In this document: positions 1 through 60,553 of the stretch, piece by piece
How the letters are laid out: the number at the start of each line of letters is the position of its first letter
How positions within the stretch are numbered: the first letter of the stretch is position 1
From: Okamejei kenojei
Taxonomy: Eukaryota
Direction: 5' to 3'
Length of the DNA: 64,000 bases
Assembly: GCA_035221665.1 (NCBI GenBank)
Contig: CM069169.1
Location: forward strand, 17,484,001 to 17,548,000
Made by a program: the position numbers and the translations under genes
The notes under the pieces: model-generated
The model's database searches: none
Seen by the model: only the letters and a program-made list of their open reading frames with translations
Told to the model about the DNA's origin: nothing

Positions 1-3000
1 CATAGATTGCTAAAGTTGAATTGTAATGCATATACAGTGTATGAAGGGCGTGGTTATTCAGCCATGTATTATGTCCCTCTACTCTTACAGCCTGATGGAT
101 TCCAAACTGGCCACTTTGTACCCACTTGGAAATTGTGCAGGGTAAGAATATTATAAGCAAACAAAAATAGACTGCAAGATTCCAGCATTTGCAGCTTCTT
201 CCTTCTCCACTTTAGTTTACTTTCTAATAGCAGCTCGTAATCAGATCTAAAGTAAAGCTCTTCCTGGTATAAGTGATGAGATCTAATTAAAACAACATTG
301 TTCAGCTGTTTGGTTGTCAGTCAGTTCATTAGATGCTTGGTGCGGAGAAGACAAGGCAAATTATTGACCGTTGAAGTAAAATTCCAAGTTATGCACAAGC
401 TTAGTGTTCACTTGGTGAAAGAAACTGCAGGATGTCTTTGGTGGTAATCACAGCTTCTTCATTTTAAAATCAATGAAGTGCAGAGGATTGGTTCAACACA
501 CATTCTACACTATTACTGATATAACAGGGGATTTTTTTAAATGTATGACTCAATTAAGGTACTTGAACTTTATTTGTTTTTTGCCTGACATTCTTAATTA
601 ATCATCATGGATAGTAAGTCTCTACTGATTGATCAGACATTACGTAGCTGGAAGCTTTCTCCAAACATGATCACAGACAGGAGTGTCAGTATTATAGTTG
701 TACCCCTGAATGTTTCCCACCGTTTGTTAAACTTTATTACAATTCCCGTGACAAGGCTGAATAATGCCCTTTTACAAATGTGGATGAGGGGTAATAAACG
801 CTCACATTTTCCAAACGGTTCAAAGGGTCTGACAAAAGAATGTCTTCACAGAGTTTGAGCAGAGAGGATTTGCAGATCTCACATCCTTGAAATATTATTT
901 AAGGTGACCACAAAGAAGTATGTTTAATGTTTATGGAGTGGCACAGTTGAAGCTACAGAGATAATTGGGTAAATCTGACATCCTTTGTGACAAGAGTTAG
1001 GAGAGGCCTGGCTGAATGTCACTTGCACAGACACATTGTTCTGCCAATAATTTATTTCCCCATCCTGTCTTAAGCTCCCCTCCCAAAAGATTGCCGTTGC
1101 TTTGGCTATGTGTTAGAATGTAGAGGACGTATTTTGTAGCAGATTGTCGTGGAGTGCAGTGCAAGATGGGGGTGTACCTTATGAACAAAGCAGTATGTCT
1201 GTACAATGGTGCAGATTTTTGCAAGAGGCATATTCCCGCATTGTCCTTAAATTAACTCGAGAATTAGGTGTAAACCATGCTGCCTCTTGAACATGGAACA
1301 TCGAACAGCACAACAGGGGAACAGCACCTCCGGCCCACAATATCTGTGCCGAACATGATGCCAAGACCAACTCTTATCTGCCTGCACATAATCAATATCC
1401 CTCTATTCCCTGCATATTTATGGGCCTATGCAAAAGTCTCTTAATTTTTATGCCACTGCCGTATCTGCCCTGACTTTTAGGTTCTTGACTTCTAATAAGT
1501 TGGGGTGTGTTTTGTGAAATAGTTTCAGATAAAGGAGAAAACATGCTTGTTAGTGATTCAAAAGTGATAACATTGAGGTTTAATTTCAATTTTGTATGAA
1601 TTTGATTTGGTTTTTTTAAATCAATCGCAGCAATTATTTCTACAGCTCAGTTTTGGGGGTAACATTTCCTTTGAAGTCAAAACCTGGATCTTTACGTGAA
1701 CAAGGACAATCTGATCTCCCCTCTCCGAATTTGAACCTGCTGATTGCTGCATGGACAAGTGTGCAGTGAGACCGGTCACCAGCCAATACTAATGACACAC
1801 TGCCACCCTCAGGCTTCCATGGGCACTAGCTGTCTTCTTTCACATGTAACCCATGATAGATAACCTTTGCATTGTTTCATAGCAGCTGCTCGTCCTTTGT
1901 TCAAATCATTCATATAATTTAAGTGTATAGAATTTGAGTGGGTATGAAAAACGATTTATAATTTATTAAAATAATATCTTTACAAAAAAAAGTACAGGAT
2001 TTAATTTCATATTAGTCAAGACTGTGCATTCTGAGTCTTACAGCTGAATAATTGAGAGGGAATCATGAAGCTCTCTGTTTGAAGTGAAATCGCCTTTATG
2101 GAGCAGTATGTTTAAGAAAGATGCTGGAAATATCGAAGATAGACAAAAATACTGGTGAAACTCAGCGGGTGAGGCAGCATCTATGGTCCTTCGCTCTGTA
2201 GATGCTGCCTCACCCACTGAGTTTCTCCAGCATTTTTGTCTCCCTTTTATGAAGCAGTAGATGTGTACGGAGCATTTAGAGTAGGATTGTTTAATCACAG
2301 ACACTCTTAATTTCATGGAAGGACCATCATAGCAATGGAAGATAGACACAAAATACTAGAGTAACTCAGCGGGACAGGCAGCATCTCTGGAGAGAAGGAA
2401 TGGGTGACATTTCGGGTCGAGACCCTTCCTCAGAGCAATGGCCTTGGTTGTTTTATCCCCACTCCCCCAAATAGATTGAGGTCACGGAGTCAGTGATAGA
2501 GTCAACAAGTTAGCTTGAGCTGTAATGTGTCAGCTTGATACAGAGCTGTGTCATTTGGACAGTGCAGTATTCACGGAGTTATCTCAATTCCTCAACCACT
2601 CATTTTCTTGCCAAAAGACAATACCTTTTTATTTCAATTTGTTTCTGTTCCTTTCACCTCAATATATTTAATAGTAAATTACAAAATGCTTTATAATTTG
2701 GGAATACATTATTCTGTACAAAGTAATAAATGTTGGTAATCTGCACAACTAGCTAATGCAAGTTCATTTTGCAGCTTATGGTTTCATTCCTACTGGAAGT
2801 TGGTCTCAGTTGAAGCCCACGGAGACTTCTTCAACATTAGAGATGAAATTGTCTTCCAATAATTCAGTAATTTTCATTCTTGCATGATGCTTCCACCTGG
2901 ATGATAAATTTTCCATTCACTTTACATAAATGTGTGGTGGCTGGTGGTCAAATTTGGCAGGTTACAGTGCAGTTTTTCATATGTTTGTTTGTCGAACTTT

Positions 3001-3933: not shown

Positions 3934-3991
3934 GTGAAAAAGATAAGAGTGTTTATTTCACATTGGTGCTAATTGGGCAAGATTTGAAGTG

Positions 3992-4120
3992 TGTGGGAAG
4001 GAACTGCAGATACTGGATTAAACCGAAGATAGACACAACATGCTGGAGTAACTCAGTGGGACAGGCAGCATCTGTGGAGAGAAGGAATGGGTGATGTTTC
4101 GGGTCAAGACCCTTCTTCAG
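3992..4120 (-). mobile_element. Penelope-derived short repeat
   Basis: 12-bp TSD AGATTTGAAGTG on both sides. Confidence 0.8.
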
Positions 4121-4167
4121 ATTTGAAGTGCTTCAGGTCATCCTTCAGTCTGCTGCAGAGTGGAACC

Positions 4168-5578: not shown

Positions 5579-7473
5579 GTAAAATAAATAAATAACATTT
5601 AAAACAGTTTTTACCATTTATCAAATACTTGGTGTTTTACAGAAATCCTTCACGATTCTTCATAGATGATTATTGCTATACATCGCAGAAGCAATTTTTC
5701 TTTACTTGTAGCACTTTCACAAGGAAATGTTATGAATATAATTTACATGTTTGGTGGTGTTTGGAAGAGCATTGGCCAGGGCACTAGTTTAACCTGTTTC
5801 CTTTACAGTACCATACAGATTTGTTGCAAACTCATTTGGAAAATTCTGCATATAATATTAATAGATTATTAGCCCATCTTTGGTTGCTGAAGCTTTTGAT
5901 ATCTTCAGCTGCTTACATTCACACGCGGAGACTATATATATGGAGTGTTAATCAATTTTTCCCTTACGATTGTATTTTCATGTGACTGATAGTATTCTGT
6001 ATTTATTCACCGTGAGGCGTATTTCTTAGTGAAGATTGGAAGCACAATGACGATCTTGTTGCCTGAAATTGACAGCTAGATCGTATTGGAAGGAGTGTCA
6101 TGAACCCATTGATTATACATTCATCATGTAACAAAACTTCAACTCAATCATCTCACTCATAATTTGAACCAAAATAATATGGTTCAAATCCCATTCTCAC
6201 CTTAAAACTGTAGCTGCTTGCAGTGTGGCCGCTTGCAGTGTAGCTGCTGCTGCTGGCGCCGTCGATGTCTGCCACGGTGTACTGCTGCACCAAGGCAAAT
6301 TCCTTGTATGTGAATACTTAGCCAATAAACTTATTCATTCTTATTCATTCATATGGTAGAATTGAGTTGCATTCAACCTGCCTTCCACTAAGTTGGGCTG
6401 GACAAGGAAGTCTGAATGAGCTGATCCTCTACATCTGGGAGGCATAGCAAGGTGTCTGAACCCCGCAAATGACAAGGGAAAGGCTAGGGATGGAACCTTG
6501 TTTTGTTAAACAATTTCATGTGATTGATGTGCAGAAACATTTAAAAAACCAAGACTATTTTAAAAATAAAAATTTAAAGTTTAAAAATAAAAAGTACTAA
6601 ATACAAAACACTTGGGAATAACTAAAATAAATGAGAAATATAACCAGGCGTACCTTTAACTAATCTACAGGCTGGGAATCCCCATTTGAATTGAATTGCT
6701 GTTCTTCTGCCAGGTCTGATGGGCATAGGATCTGAAGATGGATTGTGCAGTATAAGGCGTGATTGGGCTTCACTGTTGGCTCTAGCTGGAATGATAGATG
6801 CCCTGTAACACCACAAACTTGCAGCACTTTGAAGAGAAGGGCACAAGCCCGGTCAACTTGATTTGGCCATATATCGTCTCAATATTCAAACAAAATGCCT
6901 TTCATCCCATCTGGGACAGGAGTTAACAGAATCTTAGACTCCTTTAATGTCTGTAACATGGTGCCTTTAATAGATTTAATGTGCCTTTTAAGCCTCAGAC
7001 AATCTCCGCCAACCTCAGGGCACAATTTGCATACTCAGCTCTTAATTTGAATTTAAAAGTGGATCTTAGAATGTTAATTAATGTTACAGTACATCCCCAA
7101 GGAAGTATAAAATCAAAGGGAAGGAATGAAATAAAGTACAAAGTCTCATTTAAAAAAAAGTTATGTAGGTTGGCAATACCACGGGGCAGGTTGCAATGTG
7201 ATGGAAGATGTACTCACTCTGAATGAAAGCACTGCAATGTCAGATTTCGGGCTACTTAGTCAAATGCATTCTCACTTTGAACTATAATTTAGTGTGCATT
7301 TTCAGACTAATTGAACCCAAATGGTTAATTTATTACATTGCAGGGAGAAAATTTTATAGGAATTCGAGGGCCAATTTTTTTTACATGAAGGGTGGTAAGT
7401 GTATGGAACAAACTGCCTGAGGGGTAGTTGAGCCAGAAACTATCTCAAAATGTATGAAACATTCAAATACATG

Positions 7474-7854
7474 AAGATAGACACAAAATGCTCAAGTAAA
7501 CCAGCGGGACAGATAGCATCTCTGGAGAGAAGGAGTGGGTGACGTTTCGTGTTGAGACCCTTCTTCAGACTGATGCCAGGGGAGAGGGAGATACATAGAT
7601 AAGGAAATGTAAGGTGTAAAAATAGGACATAGCGAATGGAGATCAAGGAAAATGTAGACTAGATCATTGTTCGCTGGGAGAAGATAACAACAAAGCAAAC
7701 AGAGACAGTACGACTAGTCGGAGAATTGGGAAGGAGGTGGGATGGAAAGAGAGGGAAAGCAAGGGTTACTTGAAGTTAGTGAAGTCAATGTTAGCTGCCT
7801 AAGTGAAACATGAGGGGCTGTTCTTCTAATTTGCACTGGGCCTCACTCTGACAG
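7474..7854 (-). mobile_element. Penelope-like 3' fragment: GIY-YIG C-terminal remnant plus the common short repeat
   Basis: The - strand reads CQSEAQCKLEEQPLMFHLGS...NIDFTNFK*, homologous to the end of the 44.1-44.7 kb ORF, and continues into the abundant repeat. Confidence 0.8.
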
Positions 7855-27173: not shown

Positions 27174-28053
27174 GTAGGTATTCCTCCCTCCATGTCATTA
27201 ATTCCTTGTCATGATCTGTCCCGTTCATCACTTCCAAGTCTATCCCAAGCCAAGAAAATGAAGCAGATGTGTGTTGTCCCAGAACAGAATTCAGTTGTGT
27301 TACTTGGAGTTTTTGTTCTTCACTTGCAGTTGTGTTTCTGTTGCCCGTAACATTTTTCACTCTTGGACTTCAGTTCTGGTATGAAGGTTACATTGTGTGA
27401 TGGGTTAATGGTACAATCATATAAAATGCTGGTGAGTTGCCAGTGAAAAGTTTCCACATGTACACAAAGCAAAAAGCCATAAGAAAAATAGAAGTGTCTG
27501 AATAAAAGAGGTTCACTTGAGACTTTCTTTCAAAATTGTTTCAACAGAGCCTCGATGACCACTCTGGTCAATGTTGTCTGCAGTGATCAATAATCAGTTT
27601 TCATATTTTGTTCTAATTGTATCAAATTATTTGGGTAAATGGTTTAATAACAATTATACACTTCAATAAAAGTGGTGTTTCAAAAATATTTGCATGGTAT
27701 TTGGATGCATACATTCCTTCATGCCATCAACTGCCTGGCATTTGCCCTAGCTTTGTAAAACTAGTCTTTTCCGGGACCATTTAATCTACCACATCTTAAA
27801 TTGTCTTCGCTGGTGCTAGTAAACAGTTAGATGACGTTGGGTATTTTCCTATGCACAGTATCATCATGATGGAATAGCAATCAGAGTGGCCATTGATATA
27901 CTTAATCCATATATTTTGCATAGATGATAAGCCAAAAGTAAGGCTGAAGGATTTGCAAACAGCAATCAAAACTGCTGAGTGCAGGATTCAACTTTGCCTC
28001 CTCCACTATCACTGAAATCAGTCTTCAGTTCAATTTGATTTACTGCAAATTTA

Positions 28054-28349
28054 GGGGCGGCACAATGGCGCAGTGGTAGAGTTGCTGCCTTGCAGCACTT
28101 GCAGCGCCAGAGACAGGTTCGATCCCGACTACGAGTGCTGTCTATTAGGTGTTTGTACATTCTCCCCGTGACTGCGTGGGTTTTCTCCGAGATCTTCGGT
28201 TTCCTCCCACATTCCAAAGTTAATTGGCTTGGTATAAATGTAAATTGTCCCTAGTGTTTAGAAGATTGTGTTGATGTGCAGGAATCGCTGGTCGGTGAGG
28301 ATTCGGTGGGCTGAAGGGCCTGTTTCCGCGCTGTATCTCTAAACTAAAC
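28054..28349 (+). mobile_element. tRNA-derived V-SINE (HE1-like)
   Basis: Pol III A box TGGCGCAGTGG and B box GGTTCGATCCC, V-domain GGTTTCCTCCCAC, tail tgtatctctaaactaaa. Confidence 0.85.
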
Positions 28350-28617
28350 AAAGGTTATCAAGAAATGGCTGTAAGCACTATGTAGCAAAGTCTTCCTGAC
28401 CATGCAGTATCTGGCAGTCATGTGAAGACTAGTTCACCTCTCGGCCATCTAGCCTAGCTGTTACAGTACATTTACACCACTGCCATATACCTAGAAATGA
28501 AAAATTGCTTAGATATTTCATATCTACAAAACGTAAGATCATTTCATTCAGCTAATTATTGCCCTGTTGGTCAACTATCATTCATCAGCAAAGAGTTGGC
28601 AGATGTTGAGAGAGACA

Positions 28618-30448: not shown

Positions 30449-32009
30449 TGTCAGAGTTATGATAGGATGCTTAAATTAGTAGCTGCAACAATATTCAAGG
30501 TCAATACAACCAGAACAAAGAAACCCACTGGGCCAGCATATCATTCACCACTCTAAATATGTGATTCCGCCCCCACTAAATGCTTGTTTGCTCCTTCAAC
30601 CATAACCGTCTCACAGTTTCAAGGTATGCTCTCTACAATATGTACTGCTACAAAGTACCAAAGCATTTTTGTGCACCTTTCGAGACTGCTTTTGGAGCAT
30701 ATGGAAGGACTAGGGCAGTCAATGTTAGGGTCTGTGTGTGATCCTTCAAGATGCACACCATCCTAACTTTCACTGTTTGTTCATCGTTGCTGTGTTTTTC
30801 TTGCACTCCCTGTTCAACATACTAATGAGTACCATTCCCAGAAATACTCTATTGGTTCAAAATTGTAACAGCATTACTACCTCACCTACGGGGGTGTTGC
30901 CATCGATACTCAAGACATAGGAACACAATGAGGTCATTTGGTCTATTGAGTCCGCTCCACCATTCAATCATGGTTTATATATTTTGTCATCTCAACCCCT
31001 CATCCTGCCATGGAATAAAATGTAATGTAAAAAAACTTGTAGAAAGAAAATGTAACAGCATGAGAGTCATGCTGAAACGAGTCATGCTTTCCATCTCTCT
31101 CCATCCCCTTCCCCTTCCCAGTTCTCCTACCAGTCTTACTGTCTCCGACTACATTTTATCTCTACCGCCCACTCCCCTGACATCAGTCTGAGGAAGGGTC
31201 TCAACCCGAAGCGTCATCCATTCCTTCTCGCCAGAGATGCTGCCTGTCCCGCTAAATTACTCCAGCATTTCGTGTCTACATTGCTATATTGAAATATGCC
31301 TTATGGCATGGTAAAAATAAAGTGTTCTGCGAGTTTAAAACCTTCAAAAAAGTAATCAGGTATGAATGACATTACCCTCCCTGACTCTACTGTTCAGCAA
31401 GGTTTTCAGAAACTGTGCCAAGGAGATCAGTCAGACAATAGGTTTCATTGTTTGTTCTCGTTGTCAGAAGATCCCTTGGGAAGCAGGTAGGAGTGGGGGG
31501 CGATGGGGAAGGTAGTTAAATTTGCTCTGATTCCCGTGTGATACTGAGATGAAAACCTAACCTGAATTCAACATTCTGTTTATTATCTGTGACAACAGCT
31601 TGAAAGGCATCTCTGATCCATTGATCTTGCCAATGCCATTGATCTTGATTCTGTACATTGCAGCAGCAGGGTGCCTCTTCCCAGTTGCTCCTAACATTCA
31701 TGTTAAGCACACTCCAACAAAAATTAGTTCTTAAGTTTCCTGTCTCATCATTTCTGCTTCTGATTTGGTATTAACTGCAACAAACTTACGGGTAAAAAAA
31801 AAATCAATAAAAGAACTGTTGCTAAAACAGTTCTGTCTGATTTATTCAAAATCCATTGGCTATTCATGCATTCTAGTCAATTTGTTTATACATGTTAGCA
31901 TTGATTGCTTTTGCTATAAGGTTTGTTCTTCTGGCAAATCTCTTTACATGGGGGACCATTGGATAGCATCATTGAGAATCTGAAGTGTTTGCTCCCGATT
32001 CATTTTCAG

Positions 32010-32232
32010 TGTAGGAAGGAGCTGCAGATGCTGGTTTAAACTGAAGATAGACTCAAAAAGCTGTAGTGAATCAGCAGGACAGGCAGCATCTCTAGAGAGA
32101 AGGAACCAGTGATGTTTCGGGTTCAGGCCCTTCTTCAGACTGAAGGGTCTCGACCCGAGACATCACCCATTCCTTCTCTCCAGAGATGCTGCCTGTCTCG
32201 CTGAGTTACTCCAGCATTTTGTGTCTTATCTT
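32010..32232. mobile_element. Inverted dimer of the Penelope-derived short repeat
   Basis: Arms fold back around cttcagactgaag. Confidence 0.8.
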
Positions 32233-34059: not shown

Positions 34060-34215
34060 NNNNNNNNNNNNNNNNNNNNNNNNNNNNNNNNNNNNNNNNN
34101 NNNNNNNNNNNNNNNNNNNNNNNNNNNNNNNNNNNNNNNNNNNNNNNNNNNNNNNNNNNNNNNNNNNNNNNNNNNNNNNNNNNNNNNNNNNNNNNNNNNN
34201 NNNNNNNNNNNNNNN
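34060..34215. other. Assembly gap (156 N)
   Basis: N run inside the long MYO9A intron. Confidence 1.
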
Positions 34216-38735: not shown

Positions 38736-38821
38736 GTAACTGTTCTACGGACATTTGCTCTCAAACTCATGCAGCTTGTTAGCAGTTCATATAGTTCCAA
38801 TAGAAAAGTAAAGGGGTTACA

Positions 38822-39130
38822 GGGGCGGCACGATGACACAGCGGTATAGTTGCTACCTACAGCGCCTTGGAGACCCGGGTCCGATCCCGACTATGGGTGC
38901 TGTCTGTATGGAGTTTGTATGTTCTCCCCATCACCTACATGGGTTTTCTCCGAGACCTTTGGTTTCCTCCCACACTCCAAAGATCTGCAGGTTTGCAGGT
39001 TTATTGGCTTGGTATAAGTGTAAATTGTCACTAGTGGGTGTAGGATGGTGTTAATGTACGGAGATTGCTGGTCAGTGCGGATTCGGTGGGTCGAAGGATC
39101 TGTTTCCGCGCTGTATCTCTAAACTAAAGT
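38822..39130 (+). mobile_element. tRNA-derived V-SINE (HE1-like)
   Basis: Same head, V-domain and tail as the 28054 copy. Confidence 0.85.
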
Positions 39131-40076
39131 AAAGTTATCGCCAGTAGGTATTTCCTGGCTGGCACGTCACCTGTTGAGAAGATCAGGTAGAAAAGCCTGC
39201 AAGGCACGTTGCAGACTTGAAGCAGAGTGGAGGGGAAGAAATGGGCAAGTGAAGGGGGTTGGCGTCTCTGTGGGTGGATGGTGGGGTTGGTGTGGAGGAA
39301 CTGGGGTTGGGAGTTGTGAATAGACACAAAATGCTGGAGTTACTCAGCGGGACAGGCAGTAGCTCTTGAAAGAAGGAATGGGTGACGTTTCGGGTTGAGA
39401 CCCTTCTTCAGACAGCATGTGACGAGTGCCATGGATGTGCTGCTTCCAGGAATGATGATGACATAATGGGACTTAGGGGGTTAAGTGGGAAAGGTGGGTG
39501 GTTTAGCAGAAGCAGAGGACTGGATTAAAAGCAGAAAATGCTGGGAAGATTTCTGCAGGTCAGGCAGCATCTGCGGAAAGAGAAAGTTTCAGGTCAAAGA
39601 GCCTTGGTCTGAGGAAAGGTATTTTCAATCTGAAATACTCACTATGTATCTTCTTCCACAGATGTTGCTTGATTTGCTAAGTCTGTCCAGTATCAGCAAT
39701 TTTATTTTTATCTATCGCTGAAACAAGAAGGAAAGGGTCAAGGACAGATGACGGGGGTCTGATCAAAGGGAAGAGAGTACTGCTTTAGGGGTATGGGGAT
39801 CAGTTGTGTGGGAGGGTGGAGTATTGAGGTTCGTATCGCAAAGGCATTCAGTTGGTTTAACCAAACTTTTCTTTCTTGCCTTCAGCTACTAACTTTCCCG
39901 AATCCTTCGAAATCTGGCTTGGCGATATGATCTAAAAGATGCATTTAAAATCTGATTTAACTTATATTAAAATATTTGAGAAGCGAGTTTTTCTTTGATT
40001 AAGTTTGGCAGCTTCAAGTAGAATCAGTCCAAGGGGTGTGCTGATGCTAACATCTGACTTTATTGTTCATTGACAG

Positions 40077-43235: not shown

Positions 43236-44123
43236 TGGAGTTGTAGCCAATATGTTTCTTTAATACTTATTGAGAGATTATGATACTGCAAGTTTAATGT
43301 TCTTGTTCAAAGCTTCATTACTCTGAAATAATCTCTTACTCTCCTGATGGTGTTGACGGCATATTGCATATAAGTTCATTAATATTGGCTGACCTCTGGT
43401 GGCTCTTGAACCACAACAATGAATTAGCAAGTTTAGAAAATGAGTGCTGATATTAGAGCCACAGGTTTATTGAATAATGTAGTATGTTGGATTGTTTTTC
43501 TGCAATTTGAAATTTTTTTTGTTTATTTCTGGTGCAACTTATACTTTGGGTTATTAACTGTTCCTTCTATGAACAATGTGTCTCCTTATTCATTCTAGCA
43601 AATTGCACGCTAGTTTCGTGCTGAAGGCTTGTGCTGTAGAACTAGCTGTGCCTCTAACCAAGCTACGTAGAACTAGTGTGATCGATCGTCAGTGTGGACT
43701 CGGCGGGTCGAAGGGCCTGTTTCCATGCTGTATCTCTAAACTAAGCTAGGCAACACTGGAAAATGGCCCAGTTGTCTCATGCTCACAATCAGCAGAACAA
43801 ACCCAATCTGACTGGTTACCATCCAGTCATTCTACCCTGTCATCAGCAAGCTGATGAATGTACAAGTGATGCATCGGTATTGTTCCCCTTTGTGTTGAGT
43901 ACAATAATTCAGAGATAAATTGCCAGAATAGAGAAATTTAATATATTATCTATGTATATGACATACAGGTATGTACCTTTTAAATTGACAAAAAATATTG
44001 AGGTGCAACTGTGCAAGTAAACAAAAAACGCAAAAAGGACGGATAACTTCTGTAGTTATTATCCTGCTAGTAGCCCGTTATGTCATTTATGTTATTTCTC
44101 CGGAGAAATAGATCATCTTGGGT

Positions 44124-44899
44124 TCTCCGCCAGTTTCGCCACCTCCAACGTGACCCATCCACTCGCCACATCTTCCCATCTCCCCCCCCCCCCCCCCCCC
44201 CCCCCCCCCGCGTCTGCCTTCTGCAAAGACAGCTCCCTCCGCAACTCCCTTGTCAATTCGACGGCCTTCCCTCCCGCTCCAACCCTTCTCCGGGCACTTT
44301 CCCTTGCAACCACAAGAGATGCTACACTTGTCCCTTTACCTCCCCCCTCCACTCCTTTCAGGGACCCAAGCAGTCCTTCCAGGTCCGACAGGTTCATCTG
44401 CACCTCCTCCAACATCATCTACTGCATCCGCTGCTCCAGATGCCAGCTAATCTATATCGGCGAGACCAAACGGAGGCTTGGCGATCGTTTCACCGAACAC
44501 CTCCGCTCGGTCCGCAATAACCAAGCCGACCTCCCGGTGGCTCAGCACTTCAACTCCCCCTCCCATTCCTTATCCGACCTCTCTGTCCTGGGCCTCCTCC
44601 ACGGCCAGAGTGAGCAACACCGCACGTTGGAGGAACAGAACCACATATTCCACTTGGGGAGTCTGCATCCTCTGGGCTTGAACATTGAATGTTCTCAATT
44701 CTGTTAACCCTTGCTGTCTCCTCCCCTTCCCACCTCTCCCTCAGCCCTCGGGCTCCTCCTCCTCCTTTTTCCTTTTTTCTCCCCGCCCACCCCACCTCCC
44801 ATCAGTCTGAAGAAGGGTTTCGGCCCAAAACGTTGCCTATCTCCTTCGCTTCTTAGATGCTGCTGCACCCGCTGAGTTTCTCCAGCCTTTTGTGTACCC
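44124..44899 (+). mobile_element. Penelope-like element 3' fragment with GIY-YIG endonuclease
   Basis: IIYCIRCSRCQLIYIGETKRRLGDRFTEH...VAQHFN...GLNIE; pyrimidine-rich tract, then the pLTR-like repeat; 11-bp TSD TCATCTTGGGT (44113-44123, 44900-44910). Confidence 0.9.
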
Positions 44900-46307
44900 T
44901 CATCTTGGGTCTTGGTTGGATCTTGGTTAGGTCTCAGTAATGATTATAGATTTACACTACAGATTCAAGGCACTCCAAATTACGGGAGTTGTCAGACCAC
45001 AAAATGTTGAACAAGAGTTTAAAACTACACTAACTTTTTTTTCTTGCAAATTGTTGCTTCCTTCTCTGCCTTCCTTTCCGCCCTTGGTGTTGCCTTCAAA
45101 ATTCAAGGTCGTTATCCATTAAGAGAGTAGCATCTTTAATCTGATAATATTTTGTGTCCAGAGCTGTGAGAAAATTACATGGTGTATGAATCGAAAAAGT
45201 AAAATTTGATTATTTTCCTCCCTCTACCCGCAAAAATAATCGGTCATGCAGAACTTCCTGTTGTTTACATTCCTGTCACTGATTCAGATTGCTTGCATTT
45301 GGAGACTGAGTGCAACCACTTGACCCGATTTCCCTGACCAGTTCAAGCAGATTATCAAATTCAATTTACATTGTGCCTGAGGACGTTGGCTAAACGCCAA
45401 AGCCTTGAACAATCATGTGGTCTTCTGTTTAATACCTTGTTTATACAGAGGAAAACAACTTTCAAGTGTTTGCTGAATAAACAACTCTTGTCTGTTGATA
45501 CTCCCAGTGGAGCACTGAGTGCTATTCTGTCCAGTTCCCATCTTGCACTGAGATAACATTCTGATGTCCAAATGTTGTTTGCAATGGATTTTAAGAGAAC
45601 TCAAACACAATTTTCAGGAATAATTGCAGATTCTAAATGACGTTCTGACCAATATATATTCTGCAATCAATATCTAATAAAAAAGGACAATTTGGTCACC
45701 ATTCTTTGTGTGCAAATTTTCAACTGCTGCGTTACCGCAGTTAATGCACACATATAGTTCGATAACTGGTAAGCTGTAGAAATGAGATTTAATGAAGAAC
45801 ACTATTTCAATTATGGTAAATTAAGATTATACTTGTACTTCAGTTGCATTTCTGTGAAGTTATTTAATGTTAAGATCTTCTGAATCATCACTCCTCTTTC
45901 ATTTATCTCCTGATTACTTCATTTAAGCCTATCATCTCTTCTACATTATCTTACCTTACCTTCATACAGTCCATCATGTCCCCATGAGAAATGTCTCATT
46001 TCAGGTTCATTTAAGGCTGTGGAAAGAAAGGTATGTATGGCTGCTTAACACAACTTACAGATATTCACGTCTGAAGCATTCTTCCAGACCTCCACAGCAG
46101 CTCAGTTCAGGCGCTTCTCTGCGTTGTGAAGGAGAAATATACCTCATGTTTAACTAACGCACCTGCGTGAATGATTGATATGTCCAAAATCCATAAAGAT
46201 CTCTAATATTTCTCTTCATAATCTTTATACTTAGCTAAAGGAGGCCTGAGCTGCAATGAAACAAAGTATTGTTTTGAAAATGACACCAACTTATATTGGG
46301 ATTTTGC

Positions 46308-46435
46308 TTAAGAAGGAACTGCAGATGCTGGAAAATCGAAGGTAGACAAAAATGCTGGAGAAACTCAGCGGGTGAGGCAGCATCTATGGAGGGAAGGAAA
46401 TAGGCAACATTTTGGGTCGAGACCCTTCTTCAGAC
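46308..46435 (-). mobile_element. Single Penelope-derived short repeat
   Basis: Perfect 12-bp TSD TTGGGATTTTGC (46296-46307, 46436-46447). Confidence 0.82.
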
Positions 46436-47241
46436 TTGGGATTTTGCGGATATCAAAGAAAGGACATAGATTTGGCATCTGCTTGGATTGGCATGAAGAA
46501 AGAAATCATGGAATGCTACTTGTGTCTTCCAAGCAATCTCTGTAAGATTTATTTTTATACAGCTGTGGCCTATTGGCAATCAATCTAGGGGATGTCTTGA
46601 TTGTTCAAGAAATCAGTAAATATTTATTTGACTGACTTCCACATCACAACTTTGACTGTACTTGGAATCAGACAACAGGTATTTCTCACGGAAAATTCAT
46701 TTAATTGCCTTCACTCATTCCTTCCCATCATAGAACTCCTCATCTTCCTGTCATTACCTGCTGTGTTGGATATAGTTTAACATTCAAGTTTTACTTAACT
46801 TGCCATATTATTTCTGCAATATTGACAGTCCTCTATACTTCACATTTTTCTAGTCCTTTGTAGAATTTCAATTGAAAAATTCATTTCTTGTTCCAGTTTT
46901 CCCAATTCCTTTTCCCACAAGTGGATTTATTTTGGAAACAAGGAACTGCAGATGCTGGTTTACTCAAAAGGGGACAGTGCGGGAGTAACTCAGTTGGTCA
47001 GGCAGATAATGGAGACCATGGATTTTGGGTTTGGACTCCAACACTGTGTGTCCTTCTGGATTAAAAAAAATATATCTTTTTGTTTTCTGTAATTCATCCA
47101 CAATAGTCATGCTAGCTATTGTCATTGAATTTTTCATAACTCCATATTGCCTCATTACCAGTAGCTATACAGGACAATTCTTACTGAGCCATGATTAAAA
47201 ACGTAGCACTTAAAACACACAGCAGGTTTTATAACTTTGGT

Positions 47242-47273: not shown

Positions 47274-47852
47274 CTGGCATTTTACTTAGTTAAATAGAAC
47301 AAAATAGCATCAAATGAAACACTAACTCTGTTTCCGCTTACACAGATGCTGCCTGACCTGTGGAGTACTTCTGCTATTCTCTTGTTTTATTTCAAATATT
47401 TGCCGCTTGTAATTTCTTGCTGTTCTCTCTCTCTGCACGATGGTAGTTTTGTATTTTCCATGCGAGGGTCTATGTCCTTAAACTTTTTGCATCATTATTT
47501 CTAGTGTGAAATCATCTTCTTAAACTTCAAAATCACACTGTTTGTTTCTCTTAGTTCTTGTATATTGACATTGTCTCATTATATTCCCAGCAAATGAAAC
47601 TTCAATGGGCTATATTTTCCTTTTTCAAGCACATTTTCATAGTTGGGGGATAAATTCACACCAGGCCACTTAGGTAACAGATTCCATCTTTATTCTAATA
47701 TAGAAATATATTCATAGGTTTAAGTATCATCAGGATGTCTGACTGTAAATGTTGGGGTAGTCTGGTGTTGAGGAACTCAGTGCATACATGGAGATGTTAA
47801 ATGGTTAAAGTAACATTGGGATGATCAGGAAAGACACAGTGTCACCGTGGAG

Positions 47853-48070
47853 ATCGAAGATAGATGCAAAATTCTGGAGTAGCTCAACGGGACAAGCAGC
47901 ATCTCTGGAGAGAAGGAATGAGTGACGTTTCGGGTCGGGACTGAAGAAGGGTCTCGACCCGAAACGTCACCCATTCCTTCTCTCCAGAGATGCTGCCTGA
48001 TCCACCGAGTTACTCCAGTATTTTGTGTCTATCTTTGATTTAAACCAGCATCCGCAGTTCCTTCCTACAC
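47853..48070. mobile_element. Inverted dimer of the Penelope-derived short repeat
   Basis: Left arm is the reverse complement of the right arm over about 85 bp. Confidence 0.8.
47941..47968 (+). ncRNA. Minimal hammerhead-ribozyme motif (perfect copy)
   Basis: Identical to the 54672 copy; sits at the centre of an inverted dimer. Confidence 0.6.
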
Positions 48071-48093
48071 GTCACACTGGAGAATGCAGATAC

Positions 48094-49855: not shown

Positions 49856-50319
49856 CATAGAAACATAAAAATTAGGTGCAGGAGGAGACTATTCGGCCTT
49901 TCGAGCCAGCACTGCCATTCATTGCGATCATGGCTGATCGTCCCCAATCAATAACCCGTGCCTGCCTTCTCCTCATATCCCTTGATTCCACTAGCCCCTA
50001 GACCTCTATCCAACTCTCTTTTAAATCCATCCAGTGATTTGGCCTCCACTGCCCTCTGTGGCAGGGAATTCCACAAATTCACAACTCTCTGGGTGAAAAA
50101 GTTTTTTCTCACCTCAGTCTGAAATGGCCTCCCCTTTATTCTAAGACTGGCCCCTGGTTCTGGACTCGCCCAACATTAGGAACATTTTTCCTGCATCTAG
50201 CTTGTCCAGTCCTTTTGTAATTGTATATGTTTCTATAAGATCCCCCCCCTCATCCTTCTAAACTCCAGTGAATACAAGCCTAGTCTTTTCAATCTTTTCT
50301 CATATGACAGTCCCACCAT
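49856..50319 (-). mobile_element. CR1-clade LINE 3' end
   Basis: LSYEKRLKRLGLYSLEFRRMRG peptide and matching 3'UTR. Confidence 0.85.
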
Positions 50320-53214: not shown

Positions 53215-54094
53215 CTGCAAAATAAAATGCCTTCAGATGATGGTGTGGAACAACCTAAAGATTATCCATCAAACACCTCTGTGGTCAGAGAGGTTCTGCA
53301 CATTCCCACCTTTTGCTTCTTGGCTCTTGCTTGTCGGATGTGCTCAGGCTGTGTGCAGCTCAGGAGATTTGGCACCAAAGTAGCCGCTTAGATTGGCACT
53401 TCTTTAATCACCCCAACTTTAATTCCTGCCACCGCTGCATTGTGTACCATCTATAAAACGCGCTGCATTTAATCACCCAAGCTCTCCTGACCTATAACCC
53501 AAGAGAAACAAGGGCAACAGATTGCCGTCCAACACCGTCCTGGGTTGGAAATATCCAGAACAGACTGGATGGGCCGAATGGCCTATTTCTGCTCCTACGT
53601 CTGTGTCATGATATCACTGGTCATCTGCTATGAGATCCTAGAACGCACTAACCAATTGCTGTGGCGTACCTTCACCTAGGACTACAACAGTTTATCATGT
53701 TCCAAGCCAACTTTCAAAGGCAGATACAGGATGGGCAATAAATGCTGGCCTCGCCCATACCACCCAAATCGTGAAAAATGAATAAAAGGAGTGTACCGTC
53801 TCCCAATCAAGCCTCCATTATAATGTCCTAAATATGTGCCCTTACAAATGTTATTAACACAGACCATTTTAGTATTATTTCCCCAATACCAAATCACCCG
53901 ACATTTTACAGACATGGAACACAATATGCTGGACTAACGGAGAAGGTTCAGATGAAGAAGGGTCCCGACCCAAAATGTGACCAACCCATGTCCTCCAGAG
54001 ATGCTGCCTGACCTGGTGAACAACTCCAGCACGTTGTGTTCTGCACAAGATTCCAGCATCTGCAGTTCCGTGTGTCTCCATTTTACAGACATAC

Positions 54095-54276
54095 CTGGTC
54101 TCGGAAGGGTAGGTTGGAGAATACTGGGAGATTCTTTGCCCATTTAACTGCCATGAAGAGCAACCTCGCTGAAGCTTCATACACACTTTCGGGGCTGCTG
54201 GGCGGGTAGGTGGACATCTGGTACTCAGTGGATGTCCTCTCAGGCTCATTACTCATCACATCAATGTTCTCGTCCA
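54095..54276 (-). CDS. NR2E3: NR2E3 exon 5 (VDENIDV...[26 protein letters not shown])
   Basis: tgcag / CAG|GTATGT, phase 1->0; LBD helix 3 signature. Confidence 0.97.
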
Positions 54277-54671
54277 CTGCAAGCCCAACACACAACAGTG
54301 AAATGTAAACCAACTCTCCTCGTTGCAGTCTTTGCCTTTCACATTGCTTATAATGTACAGAAGCTTGGAAGTGCATACCAGATTCTGGAACGGCTCTTCC
54401 TCCTCTGTTGTCAGGCTTCTGAATGGTCCTTCCATAATCCAACTCACTTCTTCCCCATTTGTGGACATTGATCTCTGCAACTGATGCGCTACAATGCTGA
54501 GAACTATATTCTGCACTCTGAATCTTTCCCTTCGCTCTGCCGATTGTACTGGAGTTTGGCTCGATTGTTTATGTGTTTATTATTATTTGATTTGATTAGA
54601 TAGCATGTAAAACAAAGCTGCACCCCGGAACCTGTACAATAATAAATCTAGATCAACAGAATGATATGAGT

Positions 54672-54699
54672 CTGAAGAAGGGTCTCGACCCGAAACGTC
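54672..54699 (+). ncRNA. Minimal type I hammerhead-ribozyme motif in a Penelope-derived repeat (perfect copy)
   Basis: CTGAAGA-A-[GGGT CTCG ACCC]-GAAA-CG-TC; conserved core boxes, stem II, ACGT palindrome in place of stem III. Confidence 0.65.
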
Positions 54700-55165
54700 A
54701 CCCATTCCTTCTATCCAGAAATGCTGCCTGTCCCGCTGAGTTATGCCACAATTTTGTGTCTATCTTCGGTTTAAACCAGCATCTGCAGTTCCTTCCTACA
54801 CAGTATAGTTTCTGTGACAGCACAATGGGGTATTTCAAGCTAACCCTGCACAATGAAAGAATGGAGAATATGCTTTCATATCCTTGCATGGTTTCATATC
54901 TGACTCCCGATCCATATGGAATCCATTAATTTCACCCATGGATGCTGAGTTGCATTAGCCCATGTGCAAGTAGTGGTTAAAGGTTCTTGCTCCTGATCCT
55001 TCCTGTAGAGTGTGAGTGTGTGTGTGTGTACATGTGCCTGCGTGCACGTACGCATACAGCATTTAGCCCACTTTCTTTTATGAGTGGTATTATCAACCGC
55101 TCCGTGATAATACCAATCTCAGCATGTCTTGAGGCCAAAGGAAGATCAGAGACAGTAAAAAGGAA

Positions 55166-55378
55166 GGATAGACACAAAATGCTGGAGTAACTCAACGGGA
55201 CAGGCAGCATCTCTGGAGAGACGGAATGGGTGGCGTTTCGGGTCGAGACTCTTCTTCAGACCCGATCCGAAATGTTACACATCCCTTCTCTCCAGAGATG
55301 CTGCCTATCCCGCTGAGTTACTCCAGCATTTTGTGTCCACCTTCGATTTAAACCAGCATCTGTAGTTCTTTCCCACAC
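55166..55378. mobile_element. Inverted dimer of the Penelope-derived short repeat
   Basis: gacacaaaatgctggagtaactc... / ...gagttactccagcattttgtgtc arms. Confidence 0.8.
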
Positions 55379-55923
55379 AAAAAAGAAGTAAAAGTATATT
55401 TCCATCTTGAATGGATTTTGTGAATTGACAGCAGACCTAATTGTTTATGAAAATAAAATCGTACAGATACTCAGAGTATGCACCATTTGTGAACAGAGCA
55501 ACAGTTAACGGTTCAGGATGTTGTATTTTCATCAAAACTGGATTACATTTTTCTACATTTCCTACACTTAATGTTTTAATTCTCTGAAATAAATAAGCAA
55601 GAGTTCAGATGCTTGGTGAATGTTCACAGTTCTTTTTTTCCCCTGGATCGAAGATTCAAAAACTCAAGGGCATTGGCTTAAAGTGAGAGAGGAGAGATTC
55701 AAAAAGTGACCACAGGGCAACATTCACACAGATCGTTATATGTAGCTGGAACGTGGAAGCTAAAGAAGTGGGTACGATTACGACTTTTAAAGGACATTTG
55801 GACAGATACATGATAGGACGGGTTCACAGGGCGATGGTCCAAATGTAGGCAAATGGGACCAGCCCAACATGCCAACCTGGTCAGCATGGACAAGGTCTGT
55901 TTCCATGCCGTCCAGCTCTGTGA

Positions 55924-56302
55924 CTGATCTCATTGAAACCCGAATAGTGAAAGGTCTGGATACAGTGGATGTGGAGAGGATGTTTCCTCTAGTGGGGGAA
56001 TCCAGGACTAGAGGTCACAGCCTCAGAATTAAAGGACGTTCTTTTAGGAAGGAGATGAGGAGGAATTTATTTAATCAGAGGGTGGTAAATCTGTGGAATT
56101 CTTTGACACAAAAGGCTGTGGAGGCCGTCAGTGGAAATATTTAAGGCAGAGATAGATAGATTCTTGATTAGTACGGGTGTCAGAGGTTATGGGGAGAAGG
56201 CAGGAGAATGGGGTTAGGAGGGAGAGATAGATCAGCCGTGATTGAATGGCGGGATAGACTTGATGGGCCGAATGGCCCAATTCTGCCCCTATCACTTATG
56301 AC
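55924..56302 (+). mobile_element. CR1-clade LINE 3' end, ending ~24 nt from the NR2E3 exon 4 donor
   Basis: DLIET..KGLDTVDVERMFPLVGESRTRGHSLRIKG...RVVNLWNSL. Confidence 0.85.
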
Positions 56303-56325
56303 ATGATTAAGACGGAGCAACTGAC

Positions 56326-56568
56326 CATCCTCGGGCTCCAGCTTGGCACAGGTCTCTGCAGTCATCAGGCTAGCCATGAACCTGTGGTTGGTTTGTGGGC
56401 TGGTGGACCTTTGGCTGGCGCTGATGTTACAGCAGACCGGCCTCTGGGTGCTAGCAGACGACGAGGTTGTCTCTCTGGTTGTGGCAATGTTCTCCTTGTC
56501 AGGGTCCAGTTCGGCCGTGTCCACCCGTACCTGGGCAGTGCTTCTGGGCTGCCGTTCGTTCTGTACAG
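56326..56568 (-). CDS. NR2E3: NR2E3 exon 4 (AVQNERQPRSTAQV...HRFMASLMTAETCAKLEPED)
   Basis: cccag / G|GTCAGT, phase 1->1; diagnostic hinge peptide. Confidence 0.97.
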
Positions 56569-56756
56569 CTGGGGAACGAGGGACAAAGTGTGAGCAGACC
56601 AAGAGTGAAGATGAAAAGCAGGAAAACAAGACGAACCACCAAAAAATTAAGCACAAAGAGATTTTTCACAATTACATCTGCAAAAGCAGAAACCGCAAGC
56701 CATAATTTTTGTAGCTGCTCGCATAAACTAGCCCAGTGACATTGACATTCACTCAC

Positions 56757-56860: not shown

Positions 56861-58467
56861 CTGAAAACAGGAATTAACAAGTCGCTGAGACTCTACAACA
56901 CCAAATGCTGAAGAACGCTGTATTGCTTGCATACAGTGCCAATGAACTTCCCAAGGATGTTAAACTGTATGAGGAATCTTATGTACAGAGGAACTCCTGA
57001 TGCAGAAAGTGTGGGAAAATGGAACAGTTATAGGCATAGACAATAGGTGCAGGAGTAGGCCATTCGGCCCTTCGAGCCAGCACCGCCATTCAATGTGATC
57101 ATGGCTGATCATTCCCAATCAGTACCCCGTTCATGCCTTCTCCCCATATCTCCTGACTTCAGTTGTCCAAATTTAATGAATTTTCAGGATTTAATTCTGC
57201 TTATTGTACCCGATTATCACCCGATTACCCGAGTACCAGGTTATCAGCTGAAATCGTGACAATATGTTCCATCTGAATCATTTTCTTTCCATTGAGCAAT
57301 ATTAGCTTTGCTGGAGTACTCCTGTCTTCCAGTCAGGAGGTTAAATATTTAAACATCACAGTAAATATTAAGTGTAATTTTTTGTCTTTAGTACAGAAGT
57401 TGCCAGGGGTGCTGTCATGTAAATTAAACATTAAGCTAATCCGTTATAGTGTATATAAAGACTCAAGGTGAAGAGCAGGAGAATTTACTAATCTCCTGAC
57501 TGATGGTTGTCCCTCAGCCTTCACCATTAGGATGCTCTGGGCAAATTAGTGACTCTTAAAACACTAGTACCATGATTTTAAAATCTAATATGAAGGATGT
57601 CCTGAAGAATGGACAATGTTCTATCATATCAATACATGTTTGCTCTTTTCCAGAGCATTTGCACCTTATTAATTAACCTACCCCTCAAAATTTGTCTGAA
57701 GAAGGGTCTCAACCCAAAATATCACCAATTGATTCCCTCCACAGATGCTGCCTGACCATGCTGAGTTCCTCCAGCACTTTGTATTTTGCTCAAGATTCCA
57801 GCATTTGCAATTTGTGTGGTCTCCTCTAATTTTTCTTCTCTCCATTCCTAACATCTGCTTGGATACTGATTCCAGAATTGCTAACACTTCTGATTTAGTT
57901 GATTGTTATTGCTCTTGTGATATTATTAAACAAACAATCCTCTAATCACATGAATCTTAAGCCTAGGATAATCTCCCTTCACCCACTTCTCCACCCAACC
58001 CCTTCTCATAACTTATCTTTCTGAAGTAATTCCAATGTTTAAATATGAACAAAATCAACCAAAGAAGAAGAGGACACGAGTATTTGGCAGCATCAGTCTC
58101 TGACATCCATGCAAACAGTCTGCAAGTCCTGGATATGTTTTTCCAATCCGGAGTTCCCCTCTGCAACTCTGACCCCTTCCTTGCTTCTCCTCTCCTAATG
58201 GTTTTACTGTTCACTTCTGGAGCTTTGAACCATGTCTGACATGAACCGCAAGGATTAGTCCAGTGGAATTTAATGACATCCACTTGAGGCTGGGAGGGAG
58301 CCAATTAAAGTAGTAATTTAGGGTCCTGATTAATTCTGTACATCTCATAATAACTAATATGAACTCATCCATCCCATAGTATTGAATGCATAAAGATCCC
58401 ATTCTCATCCCAGTATGTGGCATTTCAGTTCCAGATTTACATCGCCTGACATTAGTTTAGGTTTGGG

Positions 58468-58675
58468 AAAGAACTGCAGATGCTGGTTAAAATCAAAGAT
58501 AGACACAAAATGCTGGAGTAACTCAGCGGGCCAGGCAGCATCGCTGGCCAGAAGGAATGGTCGAGACATTTCTCCATCAATCTGAAGAAGGGCCTCGACC
58601 CGAAACGTCACCCATCCCTTCTCTCCAGAGATGCTGCCTGTCCCGCTGAGTTACTCCAGCAGTTTGTGTCTATCC
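58468..58675. mobile_element. Inverted dimer of the Penelope-derived short repeat with hammerhead motif at 58582-58609
   Basis: Same family arms; near-perfect core. Confidence 0.78.
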
Positions 58676-58794
58676 ACTTTATTTTACCTTTTACCCAATG
58701 AATCATTGATTTAACAATTTCAAAGTCTTGACAAGTTAGTTTAAAGAGTTTAAACTCATGATCCCATCTCTCCAATACTGCAGCAGTAACTTAC

Positions 58795-58945: not shown

Positions 58946-59225
58946 CTACAACAAGCGCAGAAGGAAAAAAAAATCTCAGTACTGACCCTGACCATCCTAG
59001 TCGGGCAAAGGAGTTCAATCAGTCCCACTATAAATACATTGACTTGATTCATCACTGACTGAGATCACGTCTGCACCAAGTGTGCGCTTCATTCCTATCT
59101 GAGATTTGGATTTACCTCATCAGATAATTAAATATAAATAACACAAGATCATAAAGATTGATCGTACTTAATATGAAAGAAGAAATGCCAGCGTTTTGAA
59201 TAACAATAAACAGTGATAAACATGT

Positions 59226-59422
59226 TTAAGAAAGAACTGCAGATGCTGGAAAAAATTGAAGATAGACAAAAATGCTGAAGAAACTCAGCGGGTGAGGCAG
59301 CATCTATGGAGCGAAGGAATAGGTAATGTTTCGGGTCGAGACCCTTCTGAAGAAACATCACCTATTCCATCGCTCCATAGATGCCGCTTCACCCGCTAAG
59401 TTTCTCCAGCATTTTTATCTAC
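59226..59422. mobile_element. Inverted dimer of a second subfamily of the Penelope-derived repeat
   Basis: Arms aaactcagcgggtgaggcagcatctatggagcga; flanked by a ~15-bp TSD CAGTGATAA(A/G)CATGT. Confidence 0.78.
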
Positions 59423-60553
59423 CAGTGATAAGCATGTGATTCTCTCAGAGTCTCAAAAGGTGGTTCTTCCTGTGACTCCAAAAAAATTAGGAATTTAGCT
59501 TGAGGATAATAGCTGAAGGGCGTCTTGGAGTCTTCTTTTCAGCATCATTATTTACAGGTACGTCTTGCTGCAGCACGATTTATGCAAAATTATTGGAGCT
59601 TGTCTCACATCTGTGTATAGCTGCACGCTGTCAACTTTCATATTTATACCATTAATACATAAATAGATCCATGATAATCAATGGATGAACACTCTAATTC
59701 TAGGTTCATACTATAAATGGGTATAATTAAGAGCAGTATTTTGTTCAATCTGAAATTTCAATAATCTTTGTTTTATATATATATTTTATACTTAAAATTA
59801 TTTTCCAAAGCAGACTGGATGCAATTAAGTAGGTTTCAGTTCCCGAAAGGGCCAGGGGTTTATTACATAAAGGTTTTTTTAGATTGAAGGCCCACATAGT
59901 ACATTTACACTTAATTAATCTATGTATGCTTCTCTGCTTCAAGAATCTGCTGTAATATTCATACGCGTTTGTAGAACCTTTATCAACGTGCCTGTTCCTT
60001 GCTCTGTTTACCATTATTTGAGCTCTGACAACATTGCACTTCATGTACTGGAACATCATCTCCAAATTCAGTGAATCTTGGTCTCTGTCTCTAGGTGTGT
60101 ATCTATCTGACTGTCTCCTCTCCAATAACACCTTTTTCTTAGACTCTCAGTCTTTCACCCACATTTTCTCAGATCTTTTACTGTTTTACCTTCCGTCACC
60201 CTTGCTTCTGGCTTGCTCTCCTTTTCACTCCACTGGCTTTCTGTCTACTTGCCAGTCCTTGCACTGCTTCCATTTGTATGGCTATCCTTGTTTGCCATCT
60301 CTCATACCTTCTCATAGATGTTATCGTTCTCTCTGTCTTCATTTCTGTTAACCTCGAAAATTTGTTCTCTCGTCATTGCACATCCCAAATCCTGGACTTC
60401 CCACGTCACTTTAATTTCATGTTTCATGTAGCCTCTTGTGTTTTATGACTGTTGACAGACCAATTTCCCTCCTGAGATAAATAAAGTTCTATCGTATTGT
60501 TTCATTCTTTCATTCTCTCAGACAAATACTCATTCATTCTGTCTTTTACGTAC

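Follow-up and report, generated by a model that had tools for sequence, protein, structure and literature searches.

A high-copy skate repeat bearing a minimal hammerhead motif is the pseudo-LTR of a Penelope-like element

The most abundant short repeat in a 64,000-nucleotide stretch of the Okamejei kenojei genome (assembly GCA_035221665.1, contig CM069169.1, positions 17,484,001 to 17,548,000, forward strand; hereafter the window) carries what looks like a minimal hammerhead ribozyme. Is it an independent ribozyme-bearing retroelement, as a first-pass annotation of this DNA proposed, and does the ribozyme set the ends of its copies? The motif, CTGAAGA-A-GGGT-CTCG-ACCC-GAAA-CG-TC, is present as annotated, as an exact 28-mer at 54672-54699 (+) and 47941-47968 (+) and with one mismatch at 58582 (+) and 39384-39411 (−). 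Minus-strand near-copies at 7541-7568, 4093-4120, and 2406-2433 were likewise recovered, with two mismatches each, the last of them starting at 2406 and not at 2405 as first given; a copy at 44807 (+) has four mismatches. A degenerate form of the pattern, allowing at most two mismatches, matches the window 15 times against 0.42 expected, and none of 100 shuffles reaches 15. Self-BLAST depth rises to 31 in the window and stays at or below 6 for other repeats, which upholds the claim of greatest abundance. The whole repeat exceeds the 28-mer, at about 100 or 135 nt, and a profile search of the window finds 40 family copies, 22 of which form 11 head-to-head pairs.

The motif agrees, as had been recognized, with the minimal type I hammerhead consensus of PMC4209133, including the extra A and the loopless CG palindrome. 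The features of the minimal hammerheads of Penelope-like elements (PLEs) are all present: CUGANGA, the extra base, stem II, GAAA, the palindromic 15.2-16.2 positions, and NUH. The copy at 54672 is laid out as follows:

54670..54701, + strand: minimal type I hammerhead, from the sequence, with the layout of PMC4209133
54670-71 with 54700-01, + strand: stem I, from the sequence
54672-78, + strand: hammerhead core, from the sequence, with the extra A at 54679
54680-83 with 54688-91, + strand: stem II, from the sequence
54692-95, + strand: GAAA, from the sequence
54696-97, + strand: CG palindrome, from the sequence
54699/54700, + strand: cut predicted from the layout

Stem I has only 2 bp, as claimed (U-A or U-G, then G-C, with an A-C mismatch at the third position); a helix I of this length also occurs in Figure S3 of PMC4209133, at the low end of the range there. 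The further statement that stem II varies while staying paired is overstated as to pairing: one stem II pair is broken in each of the 58582 and 7541 copies, the 4093 copy has a broken CG palindrome, and the 44807 copy has lost G12. The stem II variants cited earlier are loop changes or one-sided wobbles. A check for covariation at the four pairs (n = 434-470) found two-sided changes at chance level, with 9, 3, 5, and 0 against expectations of 7.7, 1.5, 3.7, and 2.6. The three subfamilies, which are close to one another, differ by loop and one-sided changes only.

Linkage to an ORF, partial tandems, an optional tail, inverted copies, and target duplications together identify the repeat as a PLE pseudo-LTR (pLTR). 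The Penelope-like origin suggested at first pass is borne out in the window, where the 44807 copy follows the end of a GIY-YIG ORF by 100 nt, and by relatives with reverse transcriptase (RT), linker, and GIY-YIG. The window copy comprises:

44124..44899, + strand: 5′-truncated coding PLE copy with linker, GIY-YIG, 3′ UTR, and tailless pLTR (sequence and ORFs), flanked by an 11-bp target duplication at 44113-44123 and 44900-44910
44393..44704, + strand: GIY-YIG endonuclease fragment (Pfam PF01541, E 1.6e-4; 22.4 bits, just below the 22.6 cut-off)
44807..44834, + strand: hammerhead of this ORF-linked copy, with a UUCG loop, a U-G wobble, and G12 lost

The 44393..44704 frame has 121,800 first-look candidates genome-wide, and the 150 that were scored are 88-91% identical, self excluded. 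Relatives in the genome carry RT (DKG, YIDD), a C-x4-C-x2-C linker, and GIY-YIG within one frame. The 653-aa ORF of locus L031 matches RVT_1 (E 1e-5) and GIY-YIG (E 1.5e-3), both below the Pfam cut-offs, and the linker is found in loci L031-L035 as well as in the window copy. All coding copies that we read have stops, frameshifts, or truncations. A protein search returned 1,435 relatives of like architecture, and the top named identities (Mobula 72%, Chiloscyllium 63-68%, Rhincodon 67%, Hypanus 63%) support the elasmobranch lineage proposed earlier. A PDB sequence search with the element ORF gave no match at E 0.1.

Linkage to the coding element extends well beyond the window. We sampled 12 hand-picked blocks (1.284 Mb, several from small contigs), where a GIY-YIG end lies within 450 nt of 48 of 777 copies. 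All three subfamilies are represented (A, 11 of 190; B, 27 of 119; C, 3 of 224; unassigned, 7 of 244), so that subfamily A, to which the 54672 copy belongs, has GIY-linked copies of its own. Among five fetched loci, selected for a pLTR running on into the element body, four have both pLTRs, 3.4-4.7 kb apart, and both ribozymes are present in three; three of the five show the full series of tailed 5′ pLTR, ORF, and tailless 3′ pLTR. The inverted 5′ copy, the optional tail, and the short target duplication are all present in the family. The tail is the ≈35 nt between two 3′ end points and runs on, in tandem copies, into the ORF start, which likely lies about 45 nt after it. At L037:2240-2260 (−) and L118 near 5100, the likely ORF start overlaps a splice-donor-like motif.

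The family is a new hammerhead-bearing PLE of a kind already published (PMC4209133). By its C-x4-C-x2-C linker the element appears to be Neptune-type, though this linker is common to Nematis, and a recent preprint reports only Neptune and Poseidon among vertebrate PLEs (Li et al., bioRxiv 10.64898/2026.07.22.740005). With Neptune EN+ PLEs (Craig et al. 2021, PMC8557442) it shares RT, a CX2-5CxxC linker, and GIY-YIG at the C terminus, together with partial tandems, an inverted 5′ copy, and a 30-40-nt tail at one end. What differs is that about 94% of copies here are pLTR-only and most start at the ribozyme edge, a boundary that the available sections of PMC8557442 do not describe.

The pLTR copies in the window take several forms:

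54669..54802, + strand: solo pLTR, subfamily A, long (tailed) form (profile search, self-BLAST), with no target duplication of at least 9 nt
54767..54802, + strand: optional tail of that copy (two 3′ end clusters, continuation into the ORF start)
47846..48071, unstranded: head-to-head pair of a tailless arm (−) and a tailed arm (+), the latter holding the 28-mer that is exact at 47941 (self-BLAST, profile)
32006..32231, unstranded: head-to-head pair joined at the ribozyme 5′ edge (profile search)
55128..55381, unstranded: head-to-head pair (self-BLAST, profile)
58460..58685, unstranded: head-to-head pair whose + arm has the 58582 copy (profile search)
59221..59444, unstranded: head-to-head pair (self-BLAST, profile)
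3988..4122, − strand: solo tailed pLTR (12-nt target duplication that stops at the first bases of the core)
46302..46436, − strand: solo tailed pLTR (12-nt target duplication; the element begins 2 nt before C3)
7462..7761, − strand: pLTR copy retaining part of the upstream 3′ UTR (self-BLAST)
39311..39414, − strand: solo tailless pLTR with the 39384-39411 motif (profile search)
2316..2434, − strand: solo pLTR with the 2406-2433 motif (profile search)

The surrounding sequence holds host genes and other repeats:

54083-54290 and 56180-56665, − strand: exons of an NR2E3-like nuclear receptor gene (protein match)
about 10600-40543, + strand: exons of a myosin IX-like gene (the RhoGAP exon near 19155-19400 matches myosin IXb)
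11379-13412, + strand: frameshifted LINE reverse transcriptase (RVT_1 and ALKBH8_N matches)
4168-4518, 25552-25850, 28053-28359, 38821-39139, 49864-50268, and 55980-56299, unstranded: second dispersed repeat of 300-400 nt (self-BLAST depth up to 6), presumably LINE 3′ ends
14398-14610, unstranded: short tandem repeat giving a repetitive frame (self-BLAST, ORFs)
34060-34215, unstranded: run of 156 N (sequence)

Because the 54672 copy is antisense in an intron of the NR2E3-like gene, it is absent as a ribozyme from that pre-mRNA. The introns of this gene contain several pLTR copies, on both strands, and its upstream exon is a putative assignment. Myosin IX-like exons also occur at L041:2890-4608.

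Genome-wide, the exact 28-mer occurs 48,215 times (24,302 + 23,913), with none found for a reversed-pattern control, in keeping with the high copy number originally claimed. The 777 copies found by profile search of the 1.284-Mb sample fall to 672 after removal of 105 array units without the ribozyme. Since the blocks were hand-picked, we calibrated density on the exact 28-mer, of which the sample has 40; for a genome size of 2.76 Gb, the family is estimated at ≈0.8 million copies (range about 0.6-1.1 million) and, by extrapolation, makes up about 3% of the genome. An Rfam search of the repeat returned nothing at gathering score, and the sample contained no other hammerhead families, a distant family included.

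The stubs of 100-135 nt are true insertions, with target duplications of 9-15 bp. Duplications of at least 9 nt flank 53 of 426 single copies (null 1.6%), although an exact duplication is absent today from most singles and pairs. The 3′ ends fall at the two points about 35 nt apart, and the 5′ ends cluster at about −7 to +4 of C3, spread over about 10 nt. Of 373 copies, 170 end at −10..+3, where the hazard is 0.10-0.11 per nt against 0.001-0.022 elsewhere, a value inflated by the UTRs of other subfamilies, as BLAST finds a UTR match in about 14 of the 164 "short" copies. These 164, out of 222 anchored single copies, lack shared upstream sequence in an all-against-all comparison, and short copies gradually lose identity to the element over positions −1 to −6. 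The target duplications mark the boundary independently. Removing 11 array-internal repeats leaves 42 duplication-bearing singles, of which 26 join at −7..+4 and none at +27..+29; the cut-site bin holds 15 of 587 5′ ends, below both neighboring bins. We therefore rejected the cut site as the 5′ boundary, since both ends and duplication joints avoid it. The RT would instead start 100 or 135 nt inside uncut RNA and run to the 5′ end of that RNA at the front edge of the ribozyme. We hold the whole account, in which a PLE pLTR with a minimal hammerhead gives rise to stubs through internal RT starts on uncut RNA, to be likely, with considerable confidence.

The 5′ boundary itself may be a transcription start at a candidate initiator-like YCAGTCT, a reading to which we give slightly less than even weight. 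No extra cap-derived G was seen (26 of 67 against 22.9 expected), and some copies extend past the initiator-like A on its upstream side: among 77 that have AGT, the C is present in 45 as well. Contigs, which do not reveal RNA ends, from four public runs (four organisms, RNA status guessed) show a depth step and loose ends at the motif edge; this pattern follows the structure of genomic copies and of other types of UTR, and we did not use it to argue for transcription or a start. In all types of UTR, the last bases before the motif are a pyrimidine tract and CAG (90-98% of the 58 copies with a UTR), which, with the scatter of 5′ ends over about 10 nt, would also suit a roadblock: the tract and CAG would act as a 3′ splice site, and splicing factors, or a cDNA hairpin, would stop the RT. 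The Drosophila virilis element offers a precedent in an intron whose 3′ splice site lies just before helix I, with the start further upstream (PMC4209133, PMC2377424). Yet none of the 164 short copies has a join spliced at GT-AG or an upstream exon in common with others, and GT-AG appears in none of the 15 joints listed, of 56, in the RNA-guessed contigs, and we regard a roadblock as the less probable explanation. An exon-end-like base bias before short copies was present in a first sample and gone in a larger one. As a separate observation, several copies in the sample blocks lie within another copy's tail and have a duplication made of tail sequence, a possible case of self-targeting.

Neighboring copies in the sample form 119 head-to-head against 14 tail-to-tail pairs. 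Duplications of at least 9 nt surround whole head-to-head units in 33 of 98 cases (null 0.7%; about five look element-internal), and each such unit is thus one insertion. The two arms are asymmetric: with 27 pairs left unclassified, the 92 classifiable ones comprise 74 with one tailed and one tailless arm, 16 with both tailless, and two with both tailed, where 16.5 were expected (p 4e-10). Among the 74 mixed pairs, it is the tailless arm that extends further 5′ (by at least 6 nt) in 32, the tailed arm in 21, and neither in 21. Exact palindromic joints number 2,078 genome-wide, with a one-base center in 29 of the first 50 listed; their pattern differs in stringency from that for the 214 exact head-to-tail neighbors described below, and the two counts are not directly comparable.

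The Penelope families of rotifers (Arkhipova et al. 2013, PMC3846280) share with this one head-to-head pLTRs, palindromic joints, a tail on one inverted arm, duplications (8-10 bp there), an Inr-like motif, and solo pLTRs. These are few-copy families in which solo pLTRs were ascribed to recombination and inversions to self-priming, whereas the stubs here have duplications of their own and the arm asymmetry favors twin priming. Self-priming by fold-back, possibly on an antisense template, would account for palindromes at joints, for arms of the same subfamily in 53 of 56 assigned pairs, and for paired arms slightly more alike than random arms (0.86 against 0.84, p 0.015). Fold-back from the tailed arm, however, cannot produce the 32 of 74 pairs in which the tailless arm lies further 5′, and both-tailed pairs are nearly absent, though the counts are still compatible with an antisense template; overall we find fold-back unlikely. 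PAc, an Anolis Poseidon element (Frangieh et al. 2024, PMC11167929), has two internal RT start sites, and both target strands are cut and extended by what is predicted to be a dimer. Taken with the copy statistics, these results make twin priming on uncut RNA the best reading. A protein dimer would nick both target strands, priming one cDNA from each of two start sites, and the two cDNAs would anneal by microhomology, often at a short palindrome overlapping the first core bases. We think this sequence of dimer nicking, two-site priming, and microhomology annealing probable. The skate family further shares with PAc a ribozyme shortly upstream of the two internal RT starts that bound the tail and ends that are not piled at the cut site. 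The systems differ in that PAc belongs to the Poseidon clade, has an ORF that starts in stem II rather than, as is likely here, beyond the tail, and was studied in vitro, whereas the account here comes from sequence.

These observations bear on the idea of a distinct non-autonomous retroelement, which is not supported, the repeat being the pLTR of a coding PLE. An independent SINE- or retrozyme-like element would spread by dimer cleavage and a borrowed RT, and it would fit the ≈94% of sampled copies without an adjoining ORF, the target duplications of the stubs themselves, and the 214 exact head-to-tail neighbors with a few 44-49-nt arrays. Precedent exists, as pLTRs can act in trans (PMC3846280) and retrozymes derive from pLTRs (bioRxiv 10.64898/2026.07.22.740005). 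The short copies nevertheless have no diagnostic variants private to them (copies compared: A, 58 against 19; B, 38 against 28; C, 24 against 4) and no Rfam head; their ends miss the cut site, the core decays like its flanks, and head-to-head pairs dominate. The PAc template, moreover, needs ORF sequence beyond the tail (PMC11167929), which the stubs lack. We judge an independent element very improbable; the stubs need the element's protein but form no separate family, though they may still be remobilized in trans. The non-LTR retrozymes of Li et al. (2026, bioRxiv 10.64898/2026.07.22.740005), reported in one chondrichthyan genome, are likewise non-coding, hammerhead-bearing, and pLTR-derived, but they are defined by head-to-tail tandem units, which are rare here: 214 exact neighbors at 100-130 nt among 48,215 exact motifs. 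A few small arrays do fit that definition.

Head-to-tail arrays of the ribozyme part only lie at C2:52296732-52296974 (49-nt period) and C3:86332034-86332295 (44-nt period). They appear retrozyme-like and are putative natural cis-dimer substrates. Other, satellite-like arrays consist of units of about 54-66 nt from the region of the pLTR downstream hairpin, without the ribozyme core:

L040:3090-3907, L165-L174 (C1 2.0-2.2 Mb), and the C30 block, strand not given: satellite-like arrays

Core, stem II, and palindrome are together intact in 42 of 192 copies that span the motif. A hammerhead descriptor matches 68 times among the 777 family copies and never outside the family or in three null sets. 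Subfamily majority letters differ at one of 31 ribozyme columns (a loop base) against 14 of 60 downstream columns (p 0.016), and the five subfamily-fixed changes, of which two are in loop bases, two are wobbles, and one is H17 C to U, are all of tolerated kinds; the UTRs upstream of the motif are of several diverged types. This conservation between subfamilies could instead reflect a promoter or protein site. Among the copies, the core of the ribozyme decays neutrally: core and flank differ by 5.0 against 6.1%, 2.6 against 3.7%, and 6.7 against 10.0% (p 0.37, 0.35, and 0.12), and G12 is lost in 13-46% of copies, at the CpG rate. An apparent signal of selection on the core in subfamily A (p 0.004) came from alignment-edge columns selected by the profile and was gone with inner columns. 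Because the core decays like its flanks in the copies and the subfamilies yet agree in the ribozyme, selection probably acted on the parent elements and not on the copies.

Folding predictions place the core in a locked state, paired with the pyrimidine tract that follows the cut site. Among intact copies, the predicted stem II probability has a median of 0.01 in subfamily A (28 copies) and in subfamily B (43 copies) and exceeds 0.5 in nine of 84, and the motif is thus predicted to cut poorly alone; folding z-scores of the motif are unremarkable. The pairing of two copies through the palindrome, as first suggested, is formally possible. It is predicted to be unfavorable (−6.1 kcal/mol for the bare hammerhead dimer frame against −20.2 kcal/mol for two monomers), and neighbors are mostly head-to-head, which excludes a cis dimer; such pairs are predicted to fold as one long hairpin. 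The predicted off state fits published reports that motifs of this kind have low activity or depend on protein. Separately, a conserved segment downstream of the ribozyme (54720-54760 in the window, and present in all copies) may form a nested stem-loop whose loop base varies by subfamily, a candidate binding site for the element's protein.

The low stem II probability, the unfavorable dimer frame, and the lack of covariation would also be expected of a motif that is merely hammerhead-like, conserved as a promoter or protein-binding site, and never cuts; eight of nine Xenopus dimers failed to cut (bioRxiv 10.64898/2026.07.22.740005). Such a motif would not readily explain why core, extra base, G10.1-C11.1, palindrome, and NUH all fit the PLE consensus at the expected place, why the subfamily-fixed changes are all tolerated, or why the descriptor is specific to the family (68 against 0), and we consider it quite unlikely. 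The PAc hammerhead, for its part, cuts with protein and is dispensable for insertion (PMC11167929). The skate ribozyme is probably kept by selection on active parent elements only, cutting weakly as a protein-assisted dimer and dispensable for the template ends. More tentatively, the ≈0.8 million stubs may be strong-stop-like products of an RNA that starts at the ribozyme 5′ edge, with the dimer priming at two sites and base pairing to the tract keeping the hammerhead inactive.

Minimal type I hammerheads in metazoan PLE pLTRs were described by Cervera and de la Peña (2014, PMC4209133; see also PMC6155905, PMC8455134, and PMC6765202), and their presence here will not surprise specialists. The skate motif shares with those hammerheads the core, the extra base after A9, G10.1-C11.1, the loopless palindromic 15.2-16.2 positions, and a short helix I, as well as the pLTR location and the mostly single, dispersed occurrence with some close opposite-strand pairs. 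What our analysis adds is a cartilaginous fish lineage, as none appears among the species of Table S1 and Figure S3 of that work, and an unusually high count: 48,215 exact 28-mers, against highest quoted counts there of about 4,000 in coelacanth and 9,000 in Xenopus. New here are the stubs as true insertions, the pile-up of 5′ ends at the ribozyme edge, and the asymmetry of tailed and tailless arms. A literature search, with subscription journals and repeat databases, where the family may well be recorded already, mostly outside its scope, found no description of this shark and ray family or of a 5′ boundary at the ribozyme edge.

The copies can thus serve as data on two questions, how the inverted ends of PLEs form and what the PLE ribozyme does. 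Their counts favor twin priming at two fixed start points rather than fold-back, speak against cut RNA as the template, and narrow the candidate RNA 5′ end to one base region, while the 44-49-nt head-to-tail arrays offer what may be ready-made dimer substrates. If the strong-stop reading is true, the genome of O. kenojei would preserve PLE twin priming on a mass scale, and the ribozyme would not define the template ends.
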